A DNA stretch of 64,000 nucleotides from Alphaproteobacteria bacterium (lineage in GTDB: Bacteria > Pseudomonadota > Alphaproteobacteria > SP197). Location of the stretch: the NCBI GenBank assembly GCA_965228895.1, contig OZ245842.1:2839964-2903963 (forward strand), written 5' to 3'. The translations under genes were made by a program, and so were the position numbers. The notes below the pieces were generated by a model. That model made no database searches and was not told the origin of the DNA. It was given only the letters and a program-made list of their open reading frames with translations. This document shows positions 19,959 through 63,953 of the stretch, piece after piece. Every line of letters begins with the position of its first letter. Position 1 is the first letter of the stretch.

Positions 19959-20549
19959 TCAACGTTCTTCGACCCCTTTGATCGCGATATCGATGAGTTC
20001 AAGCCTCCGTGCTGGCGGGAATCGGCGCGGCCGAGCGATGACGCACGAATAGATTCCGTCGGCCGCCGCGATCAGGCTGTCCGTGGCGTCCCGCAAACTC
20101 AGGCTCAGCGCCAATGAGCCGTCCGCCACCGCGCTTTCGATCCGGGATTGCACGATCTGGTCAAAGTGCTTGTACATGCGCCGAGAACGCTCGCCCATGG
20201 CGCCACTTTTCGGTGCAGCAGCCAGCCGGAGGAAGAAGACGCTGCCCGACACCGCGTCGGCGAAAAGACACAGGCGCTGAAGCGTGCGGCGAAGGGCGTC
20301 GCGTCCGTCGACAGCGCCCTTGGCGACCGCCGACAGATCGTCGAACAACCGGCGATCTTGAAGATCGAGCGCATGAGCGATCAATGCCTCTCGGTCGCCG
20401 AAGTAATGGGTCAGCAGTCCGGTCGTCGAACCCAGCTCCGCCGCGATCTTACGCATCGTGACCTGCTCCAGCCCATCACGCGCCATAACCGTCAGAACGG
20501 CCTCGGCAATCTGCGCCCTCTGGGCTCCGTGATCGACGTGTCTGGGCAT
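19959..20549 (-). CDS. TetR-family transcriptional regulator
   Basis: The helix-turn-helix is 'VTMRKIAAELGSTTGLLTHYFGDREAL'. The start is trimmed to 'MPRHVD'. Confidence 0.8.
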   Translation of the reverse strand: MPRHVDHGAQRAQIAEAVLTVMARDGLEQVTMRKIAAELGSTTGLLTHYFGDREALIAHALDLQDRRLFDDLSAVAKGAVDGRDALRRTLQRLCLFADAVSGSVFFLRLAAAPKSGAMGERSRRMYKHFDQIVQSRIESAVADGSLALSLSLRDATDSLIAAADGIYSCVIARPRRFPPARRLELIDIAIKGVEER

Positions 20550-20558
20550 GTTATTTCG

Positions 20559-20594
20559 TAACAAAACAATTGTTGCGCAACAACTGTTTTGTTA
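20559..20594. promoter_or_regulatory. 36-bp near-perfect palindrome (probable TetR operator) in the divergent promoter
   Basis: TAACAAAACAATTGTTG-CG-CAACAACTGTTTTGTTA has 17-bp arms with one mismatch. It lies 10 bp upstream of the TetR start and 77 bp upstream of the ureohydrolase start. Confidence 0.55.
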
Positions 20595-20670
20595 TGAGTC
20601 ACTGCCATCATGGCCAGAGCACCGGCGGCATCATTCACGCCGACGCGCGTCATCGAAGAGGAACCGAAGC

Positions 20671-21672
20671 ATGACCGAGTTCGATATCGAGAAAGCCAAG
20701 AAAGAGATGGAGGCCTGGTATTGGTGGGGCATTCAGACGTTCTTCAAGTGCCCGTGGAACGAGGACCCCAACGACTGCGATATCGCGCTGATCGGCGTGC
20801 CCCACAGTTCCGGCAACGGTTCAACCGAGCGCGACCAACATCTGGGCCCACGCGCCGTGCGTAACGTCTCCGGCTGGCACCGGCGCGGCCATCAGGCGTT
20901 CGGCATGGTGCCGTGGGACGTCTGCCGCATCCACGACCTCGGTGACGTGCCGCTGCCCCAGGCCATGGTCAACGACATCAGCGTCGAGCATATCGAAGCC
21001 TATTACAAAACGGTCGACGAAGCCGGCGCGCGCCCGGTCTCAATCGGTGGCGACCATGCGATCACCGGACCTATTTTGAAGGCGATCGCCGGCGCCAACG
21101 CCAAGACCACGGGGGGCGAGAAAGCCGCCCTGCTCCACTTCGACGCGCACCGCGACGACTACATGCACATCCCCCACTGGCTCGGCAACATACGTTCGGC
21201 GGCCCACTGGGCGGCCTATACGGTGGTCGAGGAACATGTCGACCCGTCGAAAAGCATTCAGGTCGGCATGCGGGGCAACCCGATCAAGCCGCGACCGGAC
21301 ATCTACGAGAGCAAGCTGGGCTATCAACTGTTGCCGGCTGAGGATTTTCACAAGATCGGCGTCGAGGAAACCATCAAGATCATTCGCGAACGGGTCGGCG
21401 ACGCGCCGCTTTACATCACCTTCGATCTCGACGTGCTGGATGCCACCGAAGCGCCGGGCGTCGCGAACCTGGAGCCGGTCCATCGCGGCATGCGCGGTTG
21501 GCAGATCGTCGAGATCTTCCATGGCCTGCGCGGCATGAACATCATCGGCGCCGACATCGTCTGCCTGATCCCGTCAAAGGACACCGCCGCCAAGATCACC
21601 TCGATGACGGCGATGGTCCTGATGTTCGAGATGGTCGCCCTGATCGCCGACAGCATCCAGACGACACGGTAG
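20671..21672 (+). CDS. Ureohydrolase (arginase/agmatinase/guanidino-acid hydrolase family)
   Basis: The start is trimmed to 'MTEFDIEK', with an AAGAGGAA ribosome-binding site. The Mn-binding motifs are 'SIGGDHAIT', 'HFDAHRD' and 'ITFDLDVLD'. Confidence 0.8.
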   Translation: MTEFDIEKAKKEMEAWYWWGIQTFFKCPWNEDPNDCDIALIGVPHSSGNGSTERDQHLGPRAVRNVSGWHRRGHQAFGMVPWDVCRIHDLGDVPLPQAMVNDISVEHIEAYYKTVDEAGARPVSIGGDHAITGPILKAIAGANAKTTGGEKAALLHFDAHRDDYMHIPHWLGNIRSAAHWAAYTVVEEHVDPSKSIQVGMRGNPIKPRPDIYESKLGYQLLPAEDFHKIGVEETIKIIRERVGDAPLYITFDLDVLDATEAPGVANLEPVHRGMRGWQIVEIFHGLRGMNIIGADIVCLIPSKDTAAKITSMTAMVLMFEMVALIADSIQTTR

Positions 21673-21694: not shown

Positions 21695-22588
21695 TCAGGC
21701 CGCCTTTTCCGCCAGCACCTTCGCCATGGTTGAGCCAAGCTCGGCCGGGCTTGGCGCCACGGCAATGCCGGCTTCCTTCAGGATCTCGACCTTTTCAGCG
21801 GCGCTTTCGCCGAATGCCGAGATGATCGCGCCAGCATGGCCCATCTTGCGGCCCTTCGGCGCGGTCAGGCCGGCGACATAAGCCACCACCGGCTTCGACA
21901 TGTTCTCCTTGGCGAACTGGGCGGCCTCGGCTTCCTGGGGACCGCCGATCTCGCCGATCATCATGACCGCGTGGGTTTCCGGATCCTGCTCGAACAGCTC
22001 CAGGATGTCGCGGAACGAGCTGCCGTTGATCGGATCGCCGCCGATGCCGACGCTGGTCGAAATACCGATGCCGAGATCCTGCATCTGCGACGCCGCTTCA
22101 TAACCCAGCGTGCCCGAGCGGCCGACAATACCGATATTGCCCTGGGCATAGATGTGGCCGGGCATGATGCCCATCATCGCCTTGCCCGGGCTAATGACGC
22201 CGGCGCAGTTGGGTCCGATCAGACGCATGCGCTTCTCGTAGCGGTAGCGACGCATATAGCGCTTCACATGCATCATGTCCTGGGCCGGGATGCCGTCGGT
22301 GATGGAGACGCAGAAGCTGATGCCGGCGTCCGCGGCCTCCATGATCGAGTCCGCGGCAAACGGCGGCGGCACCAGCACCAGACTGGCTTGCGCGCCGGTC
22401 TCACGCACCGCGTCCTTGACCGTGTTGAAGACCGGCTTGCCCAGATGGGTGGTGCCGCCTTTGCCCGGCGTCACCCCGCCGACCACGTTGGTGCCGTAGT
22501 CGATGGCTTCCTGGGCATGGAAGGTGCCGGTCTTGCCGGTGAAACCCTGCACGATGACCGGTGTCGTTTCGTTGAGAAGAATGCTCAT
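21695..22588 (-). CDS. mtkB: Malate--CoA ligase (malate thiokinase) alpha subunit; SucD paralog
   Basis: The core 'MSILLNE...GGVTPGKGGTTHLG' resembles SucD. The insertion 'QDMMHVKRYMRRYRYEKRMRLIGPNC' is absent from E. coli SucD but present in MtkB as I recall it. The gene is adjacent to sgaA. Confidence 0.65.
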   Translation of the reverse strand: MSILLNETTPVIVQGFTGKTGTFHAQEAIDYGTNVVGGVTPGKGGTTHLGKPVFNTVKDAVRETGAQASLVLVPPPFAADSIMEAADAGISFCVSITDGIPAQDMMHVKRYMRRYRYEKRMRLIGPNCAGVISPGKAMMGIMPGHIYAQGNIGIVGRSGTLGYEAASQMQDLGIGISTSVGIGGDPINGSSFRDILELFEQDPETHAVMMIGEIGGPQEAEAAQFAKENMSKPVVAYVAGLTAPKGRKMGHAGAIISAFGESAAEKVEILKEAGIAVAPSPAELGSTMAKVLAEKAA

Positions 22589-22592
22589 CGCC

Positions 22593-23771
22593 TCACCCCT
22601 TCCCCGTCGCTTGTTTCCACGCGGCGACCGCCTTGTCGGCGGCATCGGCCAGCGTGTCGGCGGTGATGATATCCAGGCCGCTGTCGTCGAGAATCTTGCG
22701 GCCCTGCTCCACGTTGGTGCCGGCCAGACGCACGACCAGCGGCACGTCGATCTTGGTCGTCGTCACCGCCTGCACAACACCCTCGGCGACCCAGTCGCAC
22801 CGGTTGATGCCGGCGAAGATATTCACAAGGATCGCCTCGACGCCGTCGTCAGACAGCACAAGGTTGAACGCCTTGGTGACGCGCTCGGGCGAGGCGCCGC
22901 CGCCGATATCCAGGAAGTTCGCGGGCTCGCCCCCGGCATGCTTGATCATGTCCATGGTCGCCATGGCAAGACCGGCGCCGTTGATGATGCAGCCGATATT
23001 GCCGTCCAAGCCGACATAGCTGAGACCGCGGTCGGCGGCATCGCGCTCGCGGATATCCTCCTGCGACTTGTCGCGCAGCTCCGAGACGTTGGGACGGCGG
23101 AACAGCGCGTTGTCGTCGAAGGTCATCTTGGCGTCGAGTGCCAAGAGGTGTCCGTCGACAGTCACGACCAACGGATTGATCTCGACCATCGTCGCGTCGA
23201 GATCGGTGAAGGCGCGGTAGCAACCCTGCAGGATCTGCGTCATCTGCGCCACCTGCGCGGTGTCGAGCCCAAGCCCAAAGGCCATCTCGCGCGCCTGGAA
23301 CGCCTCCATACCGATGGCCGGATCGACGCTTGCGCGGATAATCGAGTCGGGTTTCTCTTCCGCGATTTCTTCGATCTCCATGCCGCCGGCGGCCGAGGCC
23401 ACGACCATGATGCGTTCGGATTTGCGGTCGAGCACGAGACCCAGATAGATCTCGCGGTCGAACGGCGTCGCTTCCTCGACATAGAGCCGGTGGATCAATT
23501 TGCCGCGCGGTCCCGTCTGGATCGTCTCCAGGCGTTTGCCGAGCAACGCGTCGGCGGCGTCCCAGACTTCGTGCTGGTCGCCGCACATCAAGACGCCACC
23601 GGCTTTGCCGCGCGCGCCGCTGTGGATCTGTGCCTTGACGACCCAGCGTTCGCCGCCCAGTTCCTGCGAACGATAGGCAGCCTGTTCAGGGCTGTAGGCA
23701 AGCCCGCCTCGCGGCACGGGCACACCGAAGTCGGCCAAGAGTTCCTTGGCCTGATACTCGTGAATGTCCAT
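22593..23771 (-). CDS. mtkA: Malate--CoA ligase beta subunit; SucC paralog
   Basis: Begins '[20 protein letters not shown]' with an ATP-grasp fold. It lies 4 nt upstream of the alpha-subunit gene. The assignment to Mtk rather than Suc rests on the partner-gene signature and the sgaA linkage. Confidence 0.6.
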
Positions 23772-23823
23772 CTGTCCCCTCCCCGGACCCGCCATAAAGG
23801 CGGGCGATGTTTAACCGGGCTTT

Positions 23824-25029
23824 TTACTCGGCAGCTTGCGCTAGCACCTCGCTGCCTTCCCGGTACCACGATTGGGCGGCGGCGACACCCGATCCCAATT
23901 CTACGGCAATGCCCGCATCGCGCATCGCCATTTCAGCACCGGCGATAGCACTGATCAGCATCAACTCGGTGACACTGCCCAAGTGGCCGATGCGAAATAC
24001 CTTACCTGAAAGCTGCGCCAGGCCGGTGCCCAGCGACAGACCGTAACGGTGGTAGGCGCCGGTGATGACCGCGGTCGCATCCCCGCCTTCGGGGACACGG
24101 ATGGCGCTGACCGTGTCAGACCGCCACTGCGGTCCGGCCGAAACCAGCTCCATATCCCAGGCCTGGACGGCACGACGCACGCCTTCGGCCATGCGGTAGT
24201 GGCGGGCGAAGACGTTGTCGAGCCCTTCTTCCAGCAACAGGTCGAGCGAGGCGCGCAGACCGCGCATCAGGCCGACGGCGGGCGTATAGGGGAAGAAGCC
24301 GCTGCGATTGAGCGTCAGCATGGCGTCGAAATCGAAATAGCACCGCGGCAGTTGCGCCGACTTTGCGGCTTCCAGACCACGCTGGCTGACGGCGATCAGC
24401 GCCAGGCCTGGCGGCAGCATGAAACCTTTCTGCGAACCGCTGACCGCGCAATCGACACCCCACTCGTCCATGCGGAAATCGATACTGGCGATCGAGCTGA
24501 CGCCGTCGACGAACAGCAGGGCCGGATGACCGGCGTCGTCGAGTACGCGGCGCACGCCGGGAATGTCGCTGGTGACACCGGTCGCCGTCTCGTTGTGACA
24601 GGCGAGCACCGCCTTGATCTCGTGGCCTTTGTCGGCGCCAAGGATGTCGGCGAACTGATCGAGCGGCACGCCTTCGCCCCACGGCACGTCAGCGGTGACG
24701 ACCTCAAGCCCCAGGCGCTCACACATCTCCGCCCATAGCATGGAGAACTGGCCGAAGCGGCTGGTCAGCACCTTGTCGCCCGGCGACAGCATGTTGGTCA
24801 GCGCGGCTTCCCAGCCGCCGGTGCCGGATGCCGGAAAGATCAGGGCTTCGCCGGTCTCGGTCTTGAAGACGCGTTTCAGGTCTGCAAACAGCGGCAGCGT
24901 GAAATCGGGGAAGTCGGGCGCCCGCTGGTCCTCCATGGGAACATCCAGCGCGCGGCGCACCGCTTCGGGAAGGTTGGTCGGGCCCGGAATAAAAATCGGG
25001 TTCTGGGTCGGCATGGCCAGCACTCCCAT
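23824..25029 (-). CDS. sgaA: Serine--glyoxylate (class V) aminotransferase
   Basis: Contains 'IFIPGPTNLPE', 'LLFVDGVSSIASI' and 'VFRIGHLG' together with 'GSQKGFMLPPGL'. This is an AGXT-family PLP enzyme. Confidence 0.7.
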   Translation of the reverse strand: MGVLAMPTQNPIFIPGPTNLPEAVRRALDVPMEDQRAPDFPDFTLPLFADLKRVFKTETGEALIFPASGTGGWEAALTNMLSPGDKVLTSRFGQFSMLWAEMCERLGLEVVTADVPWGEGVPLDQFADILGADKGHEIKAVLACHNETATGVTSDIPGVRRVLDDAGHPALLFVDGVSSIASIDFRMDEWGVDCAVSGSQKGFMLPPGLALIAVSQRGLEAAKSAQLPRCYFDFDAMLTLNRSGFFPYTPAVGLMRGLRASLDLLLEEGLDNVFARHYRMAEGVRRAVQAWDMELVSAGPQWRSDTVSAIRVPEGGDATAVITGAYHRYGLSLGTGLAQLSGKVFRIGHLGSVTELMLISAIAGAEMAMRDAGIAVELGSGVAAAQSWYREGSEVLAQAAE

Positions 25030-25080
25030 CGCGAGTCGTCAAGGGAATCGCCCTATAACGACTCGCGTGACTTCCTACTA

Positions 25081-25260
25081 GGCAAACCAATTTACAAGTA
25101 GGAAACAGGCAGATTCGGGCGCGTTTTGGATTGAAACAGACCAATTTCGTGGTGATCTGGGCCGAAAACCGCACTTCTCGGATCGCGCCAGACACCAACT
25201 AGACCAAACATGCGAATCGGATTCGTTTGCCGACCAATTTAGACCGAGCCCTAAGGTGGC
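25081..25260. promoter_or_regulatory. Upstream region of sgaA with three GACCAATTT-type direct repeats
   Basis: AAACCAATTTACAAG, AGACCAATTTCGTGG and CGACCAATTTAGACC are spaced roughly 70 to 80 bp apart. A fourth, weaker copy reads ACACCAACTAGACC. The region is noncoding. Confidence 0.4.
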
Positions 25261-25288
25261 CATTGGCTGGCAGGCCGGTTGGCGGGTT

Positions 25289-25428
25289 CTAGAGCAGATC
25301 CCGTTTTGATGGAATCGCTTCGCGATGCCGTCAAGACGGGTGAATCCGCTCTATTCATCGATAGAGAGCGGATTCACGCCGTTAGGGGGAACCGTCAAAC
25401 GGTTCCCCCTAACGACGATCCGCTCTAG
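25289..25428 (+). repeat. ~140-bp structured intergenic repeat element, copy A
   Basis: This copy is about 85% identical to the element at 38598..38737. It has terminal inverted repeats (CTAGAGCAGATC...GATCCGCTCTAG) and internal hairpins, including TTAGGGGGAACCG-tcaa-ACGGTTCCCCCTAA. Confidence 0.7.
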
Positions 25429-38141: not shown

Positions 38142-38158
38142 CGTTCTGAGAGGGTTTC

Positions 38159-38554
38159 ATGATGTTGAAGGGGACTTGCCTTTGCGGCGCGGTGCGCCTT
38201 GAGGTCAGCGGACAGCTGGAACGCCTGCCCGAAGCGTGCCACTGCTCCCAATGCCGCAAGCAGTCAGGTCACTTTCTTGCAGCCGTCAACGTGCGGCGCA
38301 CGGAACTGTCGATTCTCGGCGGCGACAAGGTCACCTGGTATCGGTCGTCCGACAAGGTGCAACGTGGATTCTGCTCCGTCTGCGGATCGTCCCTGTTCTG
38401 GAACCCCACGATTGAGGGCTACGAATACACGGCTGTGGCAATGGGATTGTTCGATTCGCCAACCGGCAGCCGTATCGCCAAGCACACTTTTGTCGCTGAC
38501 AAAGGCGACTACTACGACCTCGATGACGACATCCCCCAAAGCGAGAGCTACTGA
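38159..38554 (+). CDS. GFA-family protein (glutathione-dependent formaldehyde-activating / CENP-V-like Zn-binding)
   Basis: The Cys ligands are 'CLCGAV', 'CHCSQC' and 'CSVCGSSLF'. Confidence 0.7.
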   Translation: MMLKGTCLCGAVRLEVSGQLERLPEACHCSQCRKQSGHFLAAVNVRRTELSILGGDKVTWYRSSDKVQRGFCSVCGSSLFWNPTIEGYEYTAVAMGLFDSPTGSRIAKHTFVADKGDYYDLDDDIPQSESY

Positions 38555-38597: not shown

Positions 38598-38737
38598 TTA
38601 GAGCAGATCCTGTTTTGATGAAATCGCTTCGCGATGCCAGCAAAGCAGGTGAATCTGCTCTACTCATAGATAGAGAGCGGATTCACATGGTTAGGTGGAA
38701 CCGCCAAACGGTTCCACCTAACCATGATCCGCTCTAG
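38598..38737 (+). repeat. ~140-bp structured intergenic repeat element, copy B
   Basis: Same orientation and architecture as copy A. Compensatory changes preserve each hairpin: CCTGT...ACAGG here versus CCCGT...ACGGG in A, and TTAGGTGGAACCG...CGGTTCCACCTAA here versus GGGGG/CCCCC in A. Confidence 0.7.
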
Positions 38738-48729: not shown

Positions 48730-51282
48730 TCAGTTTCGATACTCCTCGGGGATGAAGAGCAGCGAATCCACCTCGGCGCCAATATGACAGTCGATGCAGA
48801 ACGCCACCTTTTCTGTACCCTCCCCGTTTGTGGTGCCGACAGTCTTGCCGTTGGGCATGATCAGGGTGTAGCGCCAGTCATCGGAGTCGGCGTTAAATCC
48901 CGAAGCCATCTTCTCCATGACAAACAACGGTCCGGGCACCACCGTGCCCTTTGCCGTCACCGCGAAGCTGTCCTTGGCCAGCACGGCACCAGCAGGCATG
49001 GTGCCGCCGTTTTCGTACTCGCCATATGACTGCGCCGCTGCGGCGTCAGCGTAATTGTTCACGAAGCGTCCGCCGTGGGTGTACGACTTGTAGGGCACGG
49101 AGTTGTACTTTTCCCATCCGCTGTAGGCGGACGAGATGTCAAGACCGGTGCTGGACATCAAATTGGCCTTGGCATAGCCGACTTCCATCTGCGCCTTGAT
49201 GCAGTCGTAAGCCGCCACAGCCTCGTCATTGGTCAGTTCGATGTCGACGCCGGCACCGCAGCCGCCGCACGCACCACAGCCGCCACACGCACCGCAACCG
49301 CCGCACGCACCACAGGCTCCACAAGCACCACAAGCACCACAGCCGCCACACGCACCGCAGCCACCGCAAGCGCCACAGGCTCCGCAAGCGCCGCAGGCCG
49401 AGCAGGCATCGCAGGCACTGCAGCCCGCCGCCATGCCGGCCGCAGGAACCGCCTCCGGATTCTCCTGCAAGCTCGCGCCGCAACCGCCGCACGCGCCACA
49501 GGCACCGCACGCGCCGCAGCCGCCACAGGCTCCGCAATCGGCCCAAGCGATGCTCGGCACCACGCAACCGGTGTCGGCTTCTGCCGCACAACCGCCGCAT
49601 GCACCACAACCACCGCACGCGCCACACGCTCCGCAAGCACCACACGCGCCGCAGCCACCACAGGCTCCGCATGCACCGCATGCACCGCATGCACCGCATG
49701 CACCGCATGCGTCACAAGCAGAACATGCGCCGCAAGCAGAACATGCGCCGCAGCCTGCCGCCATGCCGCTTGGCAACGCTTCCGGGTTCTCATGGCTGGC
49801 GCCATCTTCGTCGTCGGACCCGTCGGATTTCTCACCGCGCGGTTCCCACCAGTCCTCGCCGTCGCGTTTGGCACGCACTGCAAACTTCATGGCGCCATTC
49901 GAGTCTTCCAGGCTGGCGCCGCAACATCCACCACACGCACCGCAGGCATCACAGGCCGCGCAACACGCCGAGCACGCATCACACGCGCCGCAAGCCGAGC
50001 ACGCATCGCAGGCACCGCAGCCCGCCGCCATGCCAGTCGGCAGGGCGTCCGGATTGTCGAGGCTGGCGCCGCAGCATCCACCACACGCACCGCAGGCATC
50101 ACAAGCCGCACAACATGCCGAACACGCATCACACGCGCCGCAAGCCGAGCACGCATCGCACGCACCGCAGCCCGCCGCCATGCCGGTCGGCAGGGCGTCC
50201 GGATTGTCGAGGCTGGCGCCGCAGCATCCACCGCACGCACCGCAGGCATCACAGGCCGCACAACATGCCGAACACGCATCGCACGCGCCGCAAGCCGAGC
50301 ACGCATCGCACGCACCGCAGCCCGCCGCCATGCCGGTCGGCAGGGCGTCCGGATTGTCGAGGCTTGCGCCGCAACATCCACCGCACGCTCCGCAGGCATC
50401 ACAAGCCGCGCAACACGCCGAGCACGCATCACACGCGCCGCAAGCCGAGCACGCATCGCAGGCACCGCAGCCCGCCGCCATGCCAGTCGGCAGGGCGTCC
50501 GGATTGTCGAGGCTGGCGCCGCAACATCCACCGCAAGCTCCGCAGGCATCACAGGCCGCGCAACACGCCGAGCACGCATCACACGCGCCGCAAGCCGAGC
50601 ACGCATCGCACGCACCGCAGCCAGCCGCCATGCCGGTCGGCAGGGCGTCCGGATTGTCGAGGCTGGCGCCGCAACATCCACCGCAAGCTCCGCAGGCATC
50701 ACAAGCCGCGCAACATGCCGAACACGCATCACACGCGCCGCAAGCCGAGCACGCATCGCACGCACCGCAGCCCGCCGCCATGCCAGTCGGCAGGGCGTCC
50801 GGATTGTCGAGGCTTGCGCCGCAACATCCACCACACGCACCGCAGGCATCACAAGCCGCGCAACATGCCGAACACGCATCACACGCGCCGCAAGCCGAGC
50901 ACGCATCGCACGCACCGCAGCCCGCCGCCATGCCAGTCGGCAGGGCGTCCGGATTGTCGAGGCTTGCGCCGCAACATCCACCACACGCACCGCAGGCATC
51001 ACAGGCCGCGCAACACGCCGAACACGCATCGCACGCGCCGCAAGCCGAGCACGCATCGCACGCACCGCAGCCCGCCGCCATGCCGGTCAAAGCACGATCG
51101 GCGATGGACAAGGAGGCGGGCATGGGAACGGCGGCCGGATTTTCGACCGCGCGTGGATTGACAAGGCGACAGCTGGCGCGACCACAAGGCGCTGCCGCAA
51201 CGCTGACGGCAAGCGCAACGCCGGCGCCCATAAAGGCCGGCAGCATCGTGCTCGACAGCAGATTACGTTTGAGTTCACTCAT
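48730..51282 (-). CDS. Secreted giant Cys-periodic repeat protein fused to a cytochrome P460-like heme domain
   Basis: A GGGAGG ribosome-binding site sits 11 nt upstream. The signal peptide is 'MSELKRNLLSSTMLPAFMGAGVALAVSVAAAP'. Eight 43-aa units 'MAAGCGACDACSACGACDACSACCAACDACGACGGCCGASLDNPDALPTG' follow, then further (CxA/CxG)n blocks. The ~165-aa C-terminus 'DDWRYTLIMPNGK...VAFCIDCHIGAEVDSLLF' has a CXXCH motif and the P460/c'-beta family pattern. The heme domain has no signal peptide of its own, so it must be exported using the N-terminal one. Confidence 0.6.
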   Translation of the reverse strand: MSELKRNLLSSTMLPAFMGAGVALAVSVAAAPCGRASCRLVNPRAVENPAAVPMPASLSIADRALTGMAAGCGACDACSACGACDACSACCAACDACGACGGCCGASLDNPDALPTGMAAGCGACDACSACGACDACSACCAACDACGACGGCCGASLDNPDALPTGMAAGCGACDACSACGACDACSACCAACDACGACGGCCGASLDNPDALPTGMAAGCGACDACSACGACDACSACCAACDACGACGGCCGASLDNPDALPTGMAAGCGACDACSACGACDACSACCAACDACGACGGCCGASLDNPDALPTGMAAGCGACDACSACGACDACSACCAACDACGACGGCCGASLDNPDALPTGMAAGCGACDACSACGACDACSACCAACDACGACGGCCGASLDNPDALPTGMAAGCGACDACSACGACDACSACCAACDACGACGGCCGASLEDSNGAMKFAVRAKRDGEDWWEPRGEKSDGSDDEDGASHENPEALPSGMAAGCGACSACGACSACDACGACGACGACGACGACGGCGACGACGACGACGGCGACGGCAAEADTGCVVPSIAWADCGACGGCGACGACGACGGCGASLQENPEAVPAAGMAAGCSACDACSACGACGACGACGGCGACGGCGACGACGACGACGGCGACGGCGACGGCGAGVDIELTNDEAVAAYDCIKAQMEVGYAKANLMSSTGLDISSAYSGWEKYNSVPYKSYTHGGRFVNNYADAAAAQSYGEYENGGTMPAGAVLAKDSFAVTAKGTVVPGPLFVMEKMASGFNADSDDWRYTLIMPNGKTVGTTNGEGTEKVAFCIDCHIGAEVDSLLFIPEEYRN
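49990..51081. repeat. Eight near-identical tandem 129-bp in-frame DNA repeats
   Basis: The period is 129 bp and the units are nearly identical, differing by about 1-5 nt each. A less regular 9-bp (CxA)n periodicity continues to about 49230. Confidence 0.85.
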
Positions 51283-60644: not shown

Positions 60645-60770
60645 CGCACGATCTGCGACGCCGGAACTCCTCGATTAAACCCGTGATTGCGCCAGCGCAA
60701 GCTTGTTTACATGGCTCGATTGCGGCCTTAGCGTCATCGTCTAAAGGGTTCTGCTCAAAGGATAACATCC

Positions 60771-62297
60771 ATGACAAGGGAGCGGGCGCGCCGGCGCGAG
60801 AGGCGCAGCAAGGGGCAACGCTTTCATCAACTGCCGTGGCGGCGGGTGACCAACCCGTTCCCGCCGCTTGAGGCCGTTTCCGCCGACGAACTGCAGATGA
60901 TCCAGGATCGTTCGCTGGAGGTCCTGGAAGATATCGGCATCGAGTTCCTGGACGACCGCGCGCTCGACATTCTTCAAAAGGCCGGCGCCGATGTCGATCG
61001 CGGCAACCGGCGCGTTCGCTTTGACCGCAATCTCGTCGCCGAGGCCGTCGCCAAGGCGCCGGCCCGTTTCACACTTCATGCCCGTAACCCCGAACGCAAT
61101 CTGGAGATTGGCGGCAACGCGATCGCATTTTCGCCAGTCGCCAGTCCGCCGTTTGCTTCCGACCTGGACAACGGCCGGCGCGAGGGCAACTTCGCCGATT
61201 ACCAGAATTTCTTGAGGCTCGCGCAAAGCCTCAACATCCTGCATCTGGTGTGCGGTTATCCGGTCGAACCGACGGACCTACCGGCACCGACCCGACATCT
61301 CGATTGTTACGCGGCCTTCGCACGGCTGACCGATCGCGCTTGGCACGCCTATTCGCTGGGCCGCGACCGTGTCGAAGACGCGCTCGACATTATCTGTATG
61401 GTGCGCGGCATCGATCGCGAGCAATTGATGCACGAGCCAAGCGTCGTTACGGTCGTCAATGCCAACTCGCCGCTTCGCTATGACGGCCCGATGCTGGATG
61501 GGCTTCTGCGTATGGCCGATCATCACCAGCCGGTCATCGTGACGCCGTTCACGTTGTGCGGTGCCATGGCGCCGGCGACGGTGGTCGGCGCGTTGACGCA
61601 GCAGAACGCGGAAGCGCTGGCCGGCATGACGTTGATCCAACTCGCCAATCCCGGCGCGCCGGTGATGTATGGCGGCTTTACCAGCAATGTCGACATGAAG
61701 TCCGGCGCGCCGGCCTTCGGCACGCCGGAATACACCCGCGCCGCCTTGATCGGCGGTCAGCTTGCCCGGTTGAACGGCGTGCCCTATCGCTCCAGCAACA
61801 CCAACGCGTCGAACGCGCCCGATGCCCAAGCGGCGTACGAATCCCAGATGTCGATCTGGGGCGCCGTAATGGGCCACGTGAACCTGATGATGCACGGCGC
61901 CGGTTGGCTGGAGGGCGGCCTGGTGGCGAGTTTTGAAAAGATGATCATCGACGTCGAGATGCTGCAGATGATTGCCGAAGTCCTGGAGCCGATCACGGTC
62001 ACGGACGCGGAGATCGGCATCGAAGCCATGGCCGATGTCGGCCCTGGCGGTCACTTCTTCGGGACCCAGCACACACTGGATCGCTACGAGCACGCCTTCT
62101 ACGAACCCGTCGTCTCGGACTGGCGCAACTTCGAAAGCTGGGTCGAGGCCGGCAGTCCCGATGCCGCCCAGCGCGCCAACGTCATCTGGAAACAATTGCT
62201 GGATGACTACACGCCACCACCAATGGACCCGGCGATCGAAGAAGAACTTGAGGCGTTCGTGAGCCGGCGCAAGGCTGAGACCAAAGACGCCGCCTGA
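60771..62297 (+). CDS. MttB-superfamily (trimethylamine/quaternary-amine) methyltransferase, non-pyrrolysine type
   Basis: 508 aa containing 'PFTLCGAMAPAT' and 'GAGWLEGGL' and 'DWRNFE'. There is no in-frame TAG. Confidence 0.8.
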   Translation: MTRERARRRERRSKGQRFHQLPWRRVTNPFPPLEAVSADELQMIQDRSLEVLEDIGIEFLDDRALDILQKAGADVDRGNRRVRFDRNLVAEAVAKAPARFTLHARNPERNLEIGGNAIAFSPVASPPFASDLDNGRREGNFADYQNFLRLAQSLNILHLVCGYPVEPTDLPAPTRHLDCYAAFARLTDRAWHAYSLGRDRVEDALDIICMVRGIDREQLMHEPSVVTVVNANSPLRYDGPMLDGLLRMADHHQPVIVTPFTLCGAMAPATVVGALTQQNAEALAGMTLIQLANPGAPVMYGGFTSNVDMKSGAPAFGTPEYTRAALIGGQLARLNGVPYRSSNTNASNAPDAQAAYESQMSIWGAVMGHVNLMMHGAGWLEGGLVASFEKMIIDVEMLQMIAEVLEPITVTDAEIGIEAMADVGPGGHFFGTQHTLDRYEHAFYEPVVSDWRNFESWVEAGSPDAAQRANVIWKQLLDDYTPPPMDPAIEEELEAFVSRRKAETKDAA

Positions 62298-62423
62298 TCG
62301 TCACCGCAGTCTCGGCTTTGGCGTTTTCGTGACCAAAGGTGACGCCCTGGTGCTTTCCAGCGGCATGAGGCGCTCCCTAGCCTTTCGCCGACCCTCATAG
62401 AGAACAGTTCAGGCGGATTCCTC

Positions 62424-63953
62424 ATGGCCCGACGCACATCTAGACGCCAAGCCGGCGGCCGGGCCAAAGGCGCCCTTCATCAGTTGCCCTGGCGGCAGGT
62501 CAGAAACCGGTTCCCGCCGGTCGATATCCTGAGCGCCGATCAGATCGAGCACATCCACAACAGCTCGCTTCAGGTGCTCGAAGAATTGGGCATGGAAGTC
62601 ATGGGCGAGAGTGCGCGGCGTCTTCTGAAAGACGCCGGCGCCGATGTCGACGACGCGACCATGCGCGTGCGCTTCGACCGCACCATGGTGATGGAACAGA
62701 TTGAGAAGGCGCCGGCGGAGTTCACCATCCACAGCCGCAACCCCGACCGCGACGTTGTCTTTGGCGGCAACCACGTGGTCGTCACGCCGGTCAGCAGCAC
62801 ACCGAACTGTTCGGATCTCGACCGCGGCCGCCGCCCCGGCAGCTACGACGACTTCTGCGATCTCCTGCGTCTCTCCCAAAGCCTCAATGTCGTCCACTAC
62901 TACGGCGGCTATCCGGTCGAACCGCAGGACCTGCCGGTGCCGACCCGTCACCTGGATTGTTACATCGCGTTCATCACCTTGACCGACCGCGCGTGGCGCA
63001 CCTATTCGCTGGGCGGCGACCGGTGCCGTGACGGCATCGCGATGAACAAGATCGCGCGCCAGATCGGCGACGATGAGATGCGCGCCAAACCCGGCCTGAT
63101 GACCATGATCAACACCAACTCGCCGCTGCGCCTGGACGGGCCGATGAGCGAGGGTTTGATGGAGATGGCGCGCGCCGGTCAGGGCGTTGCCATCACGCCC
63201 TTCACCCTGTGCGGGGCGATGGCGCCGGCGACGCTTGCCGGCGCCCTGGTGCAGCAGAATGCCGAGGCGTTGGCAGCGCTCGCCCTGGTGCAGTTGGCCA
63301 ACCCCGGCAATCCCGTGATGTATGGCGGCTTTACCAGCAATGTCGACATGAAGTCGGGCGCGCCGGCCTTCGGCACGCCGGAATACGTCAAAGCGACGCT
63401 GGCCGGCGGTCAGTTGGCGCGCCATTACGGCATTCCCTTCCGCACCAGCAACGTCAACGCCTCGAACGCGCCGGACGCGCAAGGCGCGTACGAGTCCGGC
63501 ATGTCGTTATGGGCCGCGTTCCTGGCGCACGGCAACATGATCCACCATGGCGCAGGCTGGCTGGAAGGCGGCCTGGTCTCCAGCTTCGAAAAGATGATCA
63601 TCGATGCGGAGATGCTGCAGATGATGTTCGAGACGCTGGAGCCGCTCGAGGTCACCGATGACGCCATCGGCCTCGACGCCATGCGCGAGGTCGGGCCGGG
63701 CGGCCACTTCTTCGGTGCTCAGCACACGCTCGAACGTTATGAGACCGCATTCTATGCGCCCATGCTGAGCGACTGGCGCAACTTCGAGACCTGGGCCGAA
63801 GCCGGCAGCCCGGACGCGGCGCAACGCGCCAACCGGATCTGGAAGCAGCTTCTGGAGAGTTACGAGGAACCGGCGCTTGATCCGGCAATTCGCGAAGAAC
63901 TCGACGCCTATGTCGCGCGGCGCAAGGAAGAAGGCGGCGCCGAAGACAGCTAG
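62424..63953 (+). CDS. MttB-superfamily methyltransferase, tandem paralog
   Basis: 509 aa, about 65% identical to the upstream paralog and with the same motifs. Confidence 0.8.
   Translation: MARRTSRRQAGGRAKGALHQLPWRQVRNRFPPVDILSADQIEHIHNSSLQVLEELGMEVMGESARRLLKDAGADVDDATMRVRFDRTMVMEQIEKAPAEFTIHSRNPDRDVVFGGNHVVVTPVSSTPNCSDLDRGRRPGSYDDFCDLLRLSQSLNVVHYYGGYPVEPQDLPVPTRHLDCYIAFITLTDRAWRTYSLGGDRCRDGIAMNKIARQIGDDEMRAKPGLMTMINTNSPLRLDGPMSEGLMEMARAGQGVAITPFTLCGAMAPATLAGALVQQNAEALAALALVQLANPGNPVMYGGFTSNVDMKSGAPAFGTPEYVKATLAGGQLARHYGIPFRTSNVNASNAPDAQGAYESGMSLWAAFLAHGNMIHHGAGWLEGGLVSSFEKMIIDAEMLQMMFETLEPLEVTDDAIGLDAMREVGPGGHFFGAQHTLERYETAFYAPMLSDWRNFETWAEAGSPDAAQRANRIWKQLLESYEEPALDPAIREELDAYVARRKEEGGAEDS

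Follow-up and report, generated by a model that had tools for sequence, protein, structure and literature searches.

We describe a three-gene locus in a 64-kb stretch of chromosomal DNA (63% G+C) from an uncultured alphaproteobacterium; the whole stretch analysed is called the window in what follows. The locus, at positions 21695-25029 on the minus strand, is most probably an operon sga-mtkA-mtkB that serves the glyoxylate end of the serine cycle, a reading to which we give a probability of about 0.82. Its predicted products are a serine-glyoxylate-type aminotransferase and the two subunits of malate thiokinase (MtkAB), a coenzyme A (CoA) ligase related to the succinyl-CoA synthetase (SCS) SucCD. 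The identity of the three genes at family or orthologue level, their operon structure and the conservation of the trio are shown by the analysis. The enzyme set is a known one of the serine cycle, here reduced to an unusually bare arrangement, and we regard the result as a sound re-annotation and not as a discovery. Its features are as follows.

23824-25014, minus strand: class-V pyridoxal phosphate (PLP) aminotransferase of the serine-glyoxylate (Sga/SGAT) type, 396 amino acids.
22593-23771, minus strand: mtkA, malate thiokinase large subunit (SucC-like, ATP-grasp), 392 amino acids.
21695-22588, minus strand: mtkB, malate thiokinase small subunit (SucD-like, CoA-binding, phosphohistidine), 297 amino acids.
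22238-22249, minus strand: Mtk-specific indel, four codons (R114-Y117 of the alpha subunit), placed by alignment within a 25-residue string at 22208-22282.
25015-25289, minus strand: promoter/leader region of the operon, candidate regulatory, with four direct repeats and a hairpin; its function is inferred only.

All three open reading frames (ORFs) were found, co-oriented and closely packed, where the original prediction, made from the sequence alone, had placed them. As it had also said, the CoA-ligase pair lies directly downstream of the aminotransferase gene. The spacer between the aminotransferase gene and mtkA is 52 bp, the mtkB start codon lies 4 bp past the mtkA stop codon, and purine-rich ribosome-binding sites precede both mtkA and mtkB; given these spacers, each with a ribosome-binding site, the genes form one operon. 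The aminotransferase ORF has a second in-frame ATG upstream, at 25029. Its true start is most likely the ATG at 25014 (MPTQNP...), because all homologues begin at the equivalent of MPTQNP and a GGGAG lies 8 nucleotides upstream.

Judged by its sequence, the CoA-ligase pair is malate thiokinase MtkAB and not SucCD, since family model, identity blocks, an operon relative, phylogeny and signature residues agree. The two proteins have the architecture of a two-subunit ADP-forming acyl-CoA synthetase: Pfam domains ATP-grasp_2 and Ligase_CoA in beta, and CoA_binding and Ligase_CoA in alpha, whose translation also contains the GHAGA catalytic-histidine motif. The beta subunit scores 707.5 bits with NCBIfam model NF010647 (malate--CoA ligase subunit beta; cutoff 604) and 548.4 bits with the SucC model NF001913, which puts the Mtk model ahead by 159 bits. 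In comparison with annotated plasmids and chromids, it is 67-74% identical to proteins that the NCBI Prokaryotic Genome Annotation Pipeline (PGAP) names malate--CoA ligase beta, and at most 57% identical to sucC products. Identity of the alpha subunit to SucD is 51-59%, and it reaches 71% with MtkB from the serine-cycle operon of Methylobacterium bullatum.

Trees were built by neighbour-joining (NJ) from Kimura-corrected p-distances, with bootstrap counted on true bipartitions. Bootstrap support for the separation of Mtk from Suc is 100% in the alpha tree, in the beta tree and in a tree of the concatenated subunits, the last with 84 Mtk-type pairs against six SucCD pairs. The SucCD set contains the E. 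coli pair and one from Ruegeria that has mdh and sucA as its neighbours. On the Mtk side stands the pair from the M. bullatum operon sga-hpr-mtdA-fch-mtkA-mtkB-ppc-mcl, which serves as the phylogenetic reference; it is orthologous to the biochemically assayed enzyme rather than being that very protein. Signature positions were those near-invariant in Mtk and invariant for a different residue in SucCD; the window pair has the Mtk state at 10 of 10 (seven of seven in alpha; Q30, V305 and A320 in beta). Beta A320 lies in FAGI, the counterpart of FGGI in SucC. The original prediction had read the pair as MtkAB and had named a phylogeny of both subunits as the check; this NJ analysis places both outside SucCD, and family model, signature residues and synteny bear the reading out.

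A less accurate part of that prediction concerned an insertion in the alpha subunit. The string in question, QDMMHVKRYMRRYRYEKRMRLIGPN, is present at alpha residues 103-127 (DNA 22208-22282) and does hold an Mtk-specific indel, but the indel is four residues long, not 25, and the remainder is conserved SucD sequence. Only 3-4 residues are extra with respect to pig and E. coli SucD, with a three-residue gap against pig SCS alpha. When 10 Mtk-type and six SucD alphas are aligned, the extra residues are R114-Y117 (DNA 22238-22249), and QDM..VK and RLIGPN on either side belong to the conserved sequence of the family, SucD included. The four-residue indel is found in 84 of 84 Mtk-type alphas and none of the six SucD, and co-occurs with GPNCAG in place of GPNCPG. 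Together the two form a simple, apparently fully diagnostic marker of the Mtk alpha subunit in sequence comparisons, and could seed the MtkB family model that is currently missing.

The gap is visible in public annotation. In every RefSeq record inspected, PGAP correctly names beta 'malate--CoA ligase subunit beta' and calls alpha 'sucD succinate--CoA ligase subunit alpha', since alpha clears the SucD cutoff and there is no model for MtkB; its name for the aminotransferase is generic. KEGG Orthology-based names at the Joint Genome Institute (JGI), looked at for alpha only, read 'malate-CoA ligase subunit alpha' for many homologues. The predicted mislabelling of the pair as sucCD therefore holds for alpha under PGAP; it does not hold for beta, which PGAP names correctly, or for alpha as named by JGI. 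Metabolic reconstructions drawn from such records may credit an extra tricarboxylic acid (TCA) cycle enzyme and overlook malyl-CoA formation, and the practical value of the finding is in annotation quality. As a separate matter, sucCD-named pairs on Skermanella and Azospirillum plasmids (L014 and L015 in our locus numbering) lie beside the oxalate genes frc/oxc and formate dehydrogenase genes. They stand apart from the TCA-type sucCD clade and may be another specialised SucCD-like ligase under the sucCD name.

The aminotransferase matches Pfam Aminotran_5 (PF00266) and has the PLP-lysine motif SGSQK. Its best solved structure is Arabidopsis serine--glyoxylate aminotransferase AGT1 (6pk1; 418 bits, E = 1.9e-124), and its top NCBIfam model is BhcA (NF045640), at 629.4 bits, below the cutoff of 650. 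The two types were told apart at 16 positions that are invariant in BhcA and differently conserved in 44 serine-cycle-linked enzymes. The window enzyme has the Sga state at 15 of these and the BhcA state at none; at BhcA positions N87/M89/R93 it has F/Q/L. In NJ trees genuine BhcA, from bhcRABCD loci, forms a 100%-supported clade nested in a grade of mtk/hpr/glyA-linked enzymes, which leaves Sga-type sequences paraphyletic around it. We assign the gene by sequence to the serine-glyoxylate/BhcA family and file it as Sga-type because of the 15 Sga-state positions and the lack of any BhcA-state one. The AGT1 match and these residues agree with the original prediction of a serine-glyoxylate-type aminotransferase upstream of the pair. 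Model cutoff, clade and signature residues all speak against an identification as BhcA, which was rejected. BhcA itself accepts serine as well as aspartate (PMC9436414), and for that reason a preference of the window enzyme for serine is putative.

Its likeness to Sga/SGAT (Arabidopsis AGT1; serine-cycle sga) extends to the class-V PLP fold, the gene order sga-mtkA and 57-62% identity to mtk-linked sga products. Unlike these, it sits in a subclade of its own with enzymes from other mcl-less loci (70% identity among them), which branches beside BhcA and not with the Methylobacterium and plant enzymes. BhcA of Paracoccus denitrificans is of the same family, 57-60% identical and similar at the N-terminus. 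Two observations on other loci concern the same family or gene position. On Acidiphilium multivorum plasmid pACMV1 (L022, 5001-6191) a PGAP-named BhcA without adjoining bhcBCD lies between a transposase and an integrase, and therefore the BhcA model also captures orphan copies. In roseobacter and Paracoccus clusters (L008, 7744-8985; L017, 5741-6982; about 20 other Rhodobacterales loci) a different class-V aminotransferase gene stands just before mtkA. Its product is only 27% identical to the window enzyme and, by sequence, looks like a non-orthologous replacement of sga.

Synteny was surveyed with one genome per GTDB species, giving 80 loci, of which 60 with adequate flanks were counted. Among these 60, mtkB was present in 60, the malyl-CoA lyase gene mcl in 57, an aminotransferase gene in 51, ppc in 27, the hydroxypyruvate reductase gene hpr in 26 and the glycerate kinase gene gck in 13. 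The complete genome of Aestuariispira ectoiniformans has an 81%-identical orthologue in the order aminotransferase-mcl-mtkA-mtkB-hpr-gck. Replicons of Aminobacter, Sinorhizobium, Ruegeria and Paracoccus have the same core plus glyA, ppc, folD and ftfL, and the M. bullatum locus has the classical methylotroph order, listed as type V (PMC13199381). The plasmid MtkA of Aminobacter sp. NyZ550 is 72.6% identical to that of the window. In this strain the operon sga-mcl-mtkBA-hpr-gck was found by experiment to be methylamine-induced under SecR control, and inactivation of SecR activators abolished growth on methylamines (PMC13199381). All five published types of serine-cycle cluster (I-V) contain the sga and mtkBA core (PMC13199381), which together with the surveyed loci makes the linkage of sga and mtkAB the rule in such clusters, as the original prediction had supposed.

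The window departs from this pattern. NCBIfam and Pfam models, run against practically every plausible ORF in its 64 kb, detected no gene of the HpcH_HpaI/CoA-ester-lyase type, versus mcl at 57 of 60 loci of related species. No hpr, gck, ppc, glyA, sucAB, mdh or second sucCD was found there either. The absence of mcl, hpr and gck from the window makes the one- or two-carbon assimilation that the original prediction had drawn from the trio a possible role only. The mcl gene is likewise absent at the same bare trio in the close relatives L001, L025 and L004 and in L003, L037 and L039. The neighbourhoods of these loci are unrelated, those of L037 and L039 included, and no extra partner gene is conserved among them. 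The window thus shares the core of the SecR-regulated clusters and fits none of their five arrangements. The bare sga-mtkAB is a minor addition to those types, and would gain interest only if the remaining genes of the cycle turned out to be missing from the genome. A further observation concerns three distant mcl-less or short clusters (L003, 7394-7561; L036; L037), in which a small ORF of ~55 amino acids lies just before sga. Its products share a C-terminal motif F..AMR.VE.E.Y, have no Pfam hit on record and have no counterpart in the window.

In the favoured scheme MtkAB would act as an ADP-forming SucCD-like ligase, using ATP and a phosphohistidine of the small subunit to convert L-malate and CoA reversibly to (S)-malyl-CoA. 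A malyl-CoA lyase, which we infer to be encoded outside the window, would cleave this to acetyl-CoA and glyoxylate. The aminotransferase would exchange an amino group between glyoxylate/glycine on one side and, on the other, a hydroxy- or keto-acid, most likely serine/hydroxypyruvate, and the glyoxylate from malyl-CoA cleavage would be aminated to glycine. With mcl, hpr, gck, ppc and a SecR gene all lacking from its surroundings, the trio may function in the interconversion of glycine/glyoxylate and malate and not in full methylotrophic growth. Several points weigh against the serine-cycle assignment. Substrates are taken from family membership and the flux direction is presumed; the trees are distance-based only, and the SucCD comparison set is small (six sequences plus PDB hits). 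Neither mcl nor hpr nor gck is in the window. The aminotransferase and the enzymes of mcl-less loci form the sister group of the BhcA clade (71% bootstrap, NJ), and the family is promiscuous, so that serine is a presumed amino donor.

That the pair is instead an ordinary TCA-cycle SucCD, by chance beside an aminotransferase gene, we consider extremely improbable. Both subunits do pass the SucC and SucD cutoffs (beta, 548 against 370; alpha, 440 against 336), every solved homologue is an SCS, and NCBI names the alpha subunit sucD in every orthologue. The solved enzymes (E. coli 1SCU/2SCU; pig 2FP4) share with the pair their fold, domain order, GHAGA histidine loop, ATP-grasp beta subunit and 52-59% identity. 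Against these stand the 159-bit margin of the Mtk model and the fully supported separation from E. coli SucCD and from alphaproteobacterial SucCD adjoining mdh/sucAB, neighbours that the window lacks. The four-residue indel, GPNCAG, FAGI and the complete set of signature residues also set the pair apart. Furthermore, its orthologues adjoin mcl in 95% of species and occur alongside a distinct sucCD, in the same record in M. bullatum and on separate replicons in Sinorhizobium sp. M103 (mtkA on plasmid NZ_CP104128.1, sucCD on NZ_CP104127.1). The Methylorubrum/Methylobacterium-type MtkAB (EC 6.2.1.9; NF010647) resembles the pair more closely: the two-subunit architecture is the same, beta passes the equivalog model, the M. 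bullatum operon pair (67% identical in beta, 71% in alpha) has the same indel and signature residues, and in most clusters the genes also come right after an aminotransferase gene. What differs is the setting, since the window pair has no adjoining mcl, ppc, hpr, mtdA or fch and comes from an uncultured Rhodospirillales-like marine-type alphaproteobacterium with no sign of methylotrophy in the window. A shift of the Mtk-type ligase of the mcl-less sublineage to another dicarboxylate or hydroxy-acid, so that it no longer makes malyl-CoA, would account for the absence of mcl from all seven bare loci and for their lack of a common partner gene. This is very unlikely in view of the position of the window pair deep in the Mtk clade, next to Aestuariispira with its mcl-hpr-gck, on a branch that is not long. 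The family-wide signature residues are all retained, and the pair also keeps its link to an sga-type aminotransferase.

Another proposal, improbable in our view, takes the aminotransferase as a BhcA-like aspartate-glyoxylate enzyme, with the trio coupling malate cleavage to glycine formation from aspartate as a hybrid of serine-cycle and beta-hydroxyaspartate-cycle enzymes. It draws on the BhcA model as best NCBIfam match, on an N-terminus, MPTQNPIFIPGPTN, similar to that of BhcA, on the sister-group position in the NJ tree and on the lack of a nearby hydroxypyruvate reductase to consume the product of serine transamination. Yet the score is under the curated cutoff, the gene falls outside the BhcA clade, BhcA-specific residues number 0 of 16, and bhcB, bhcC, bhcD and bhcR are all missing from the window; the other mtk-linked members of the family are all in serine-cycle contexts with hpr or glyA. 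Rather unlikely, too, is that in this lineage the trio has become detached from the methylotrophic serine cycle and works by itself, relying on a malyl-CoA lyase encoded at a distance and possibly running in reverse. Glycine would then be converted to glyoxylate, glyoxylate and acetyl-CoA condensed to malyl-CoA, and malyl-CoA converted to malate with formation of ATP. The missing neighbours, the aminotransferase's own subclade and the operon's own promoter motifs are what this proposal draws on. If true, the reverse route would stand in for malate synthase while conserving ATP, assimilating glycine- or glycolate-derived two-carbon units in the sea.

Upstream of the operon, four TTGGTC/TTGGTT direct repeats start at 25237, 25207, 25144 and 25090, and a hairpin with a 16-bp stem (-30.7 kcal/mol, z = -3.0) occupies about 25030-25067, right before the ribosome-binding site of the aminotransferase gene. 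These features are kept in L001 and partly in L025, where the stem is conserved and the loop variable; the more distant L004 has TTGGT..ACCAA sites in place of the direct repeats. Repeats and hairpin are a candidate operator or leader for a putative regulator. No sigma-70 promoter or intrinsic terminator for the operon was found above chance. A riboswitch or other known RNA upstream was rejected, as an Rfam scan of the whole window matched only a tRNA. Regulation by SecR was also rejected: a SecR-like ORF, present in 45 of the fetched loci, was found nowhere in the window, and its motif CCYACCCG, characteristic of the SecR-regulated clusters of types I-IV, does not occur within 450 nucleotides upstream of the aminotransferase gene, where the window has its TTGGTC repeats.

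Between the upstream gene and the promoter region lies an inverted-repeat-rich element of 136 bp (25290-25425), flanked by duplicated CTAG(A) and not present at the corresponding position in the relatives of 98% and 96% identity. A second copy at about 38640-38730 has the same AGAGCGGATTCAC ends and a similar hairpin of 18-19 nucleotides. By sequence the element looks like a small mobile element of the miniature inverted-repeat transposable element (MITE) or repetitive extragenic palindromic (REP) type.

The nearest public sequences to the window are from uncultured Rhodospirillales-like alphaproteobacteria: an ENA contig (L001, assembly ERZ26167852, 98% identical) and the GTDB metagenome-assembled genome PL23b_bin.48 (96%). 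On the other side of the operon, a convergent arginase/agmatinase-family gene (20548-21672) ends 22 bp past it; this gene is single in the window and a tandem duplicate in L001 (11048-13092), and in both a BetI-type TetR regulator gene follows. Elsewhere the window contains glyQS, ppdK, ispB, hut genes and MttB-family methyltransferase genes. An 850-residue ORF at 48730-51282 (minus strand) has a C-terminal cytochrome P460 domain as its only recognisable part. The stretch in which it lies is strongly skewed in composition (GC skew -0.16, AT skew +0.27), and long ORFs overlap there on the two strands. Two genes of the MttB methyltransferase superfamily, in tandem at 60732-62297 and 62343-63953 (plus strand), score 308 and 336, well under the trimethylamine methyltransferase cutoff of 525, and probably encode quaternary-amine methyltransferases of the non-pyrrolysine kind. 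With a GFA-domain gene at 38150-38554 they hint at methylated-amine or glycine-betaine metabolism, possibly feeding glycine or one-carbon units to sga-mtkAB.

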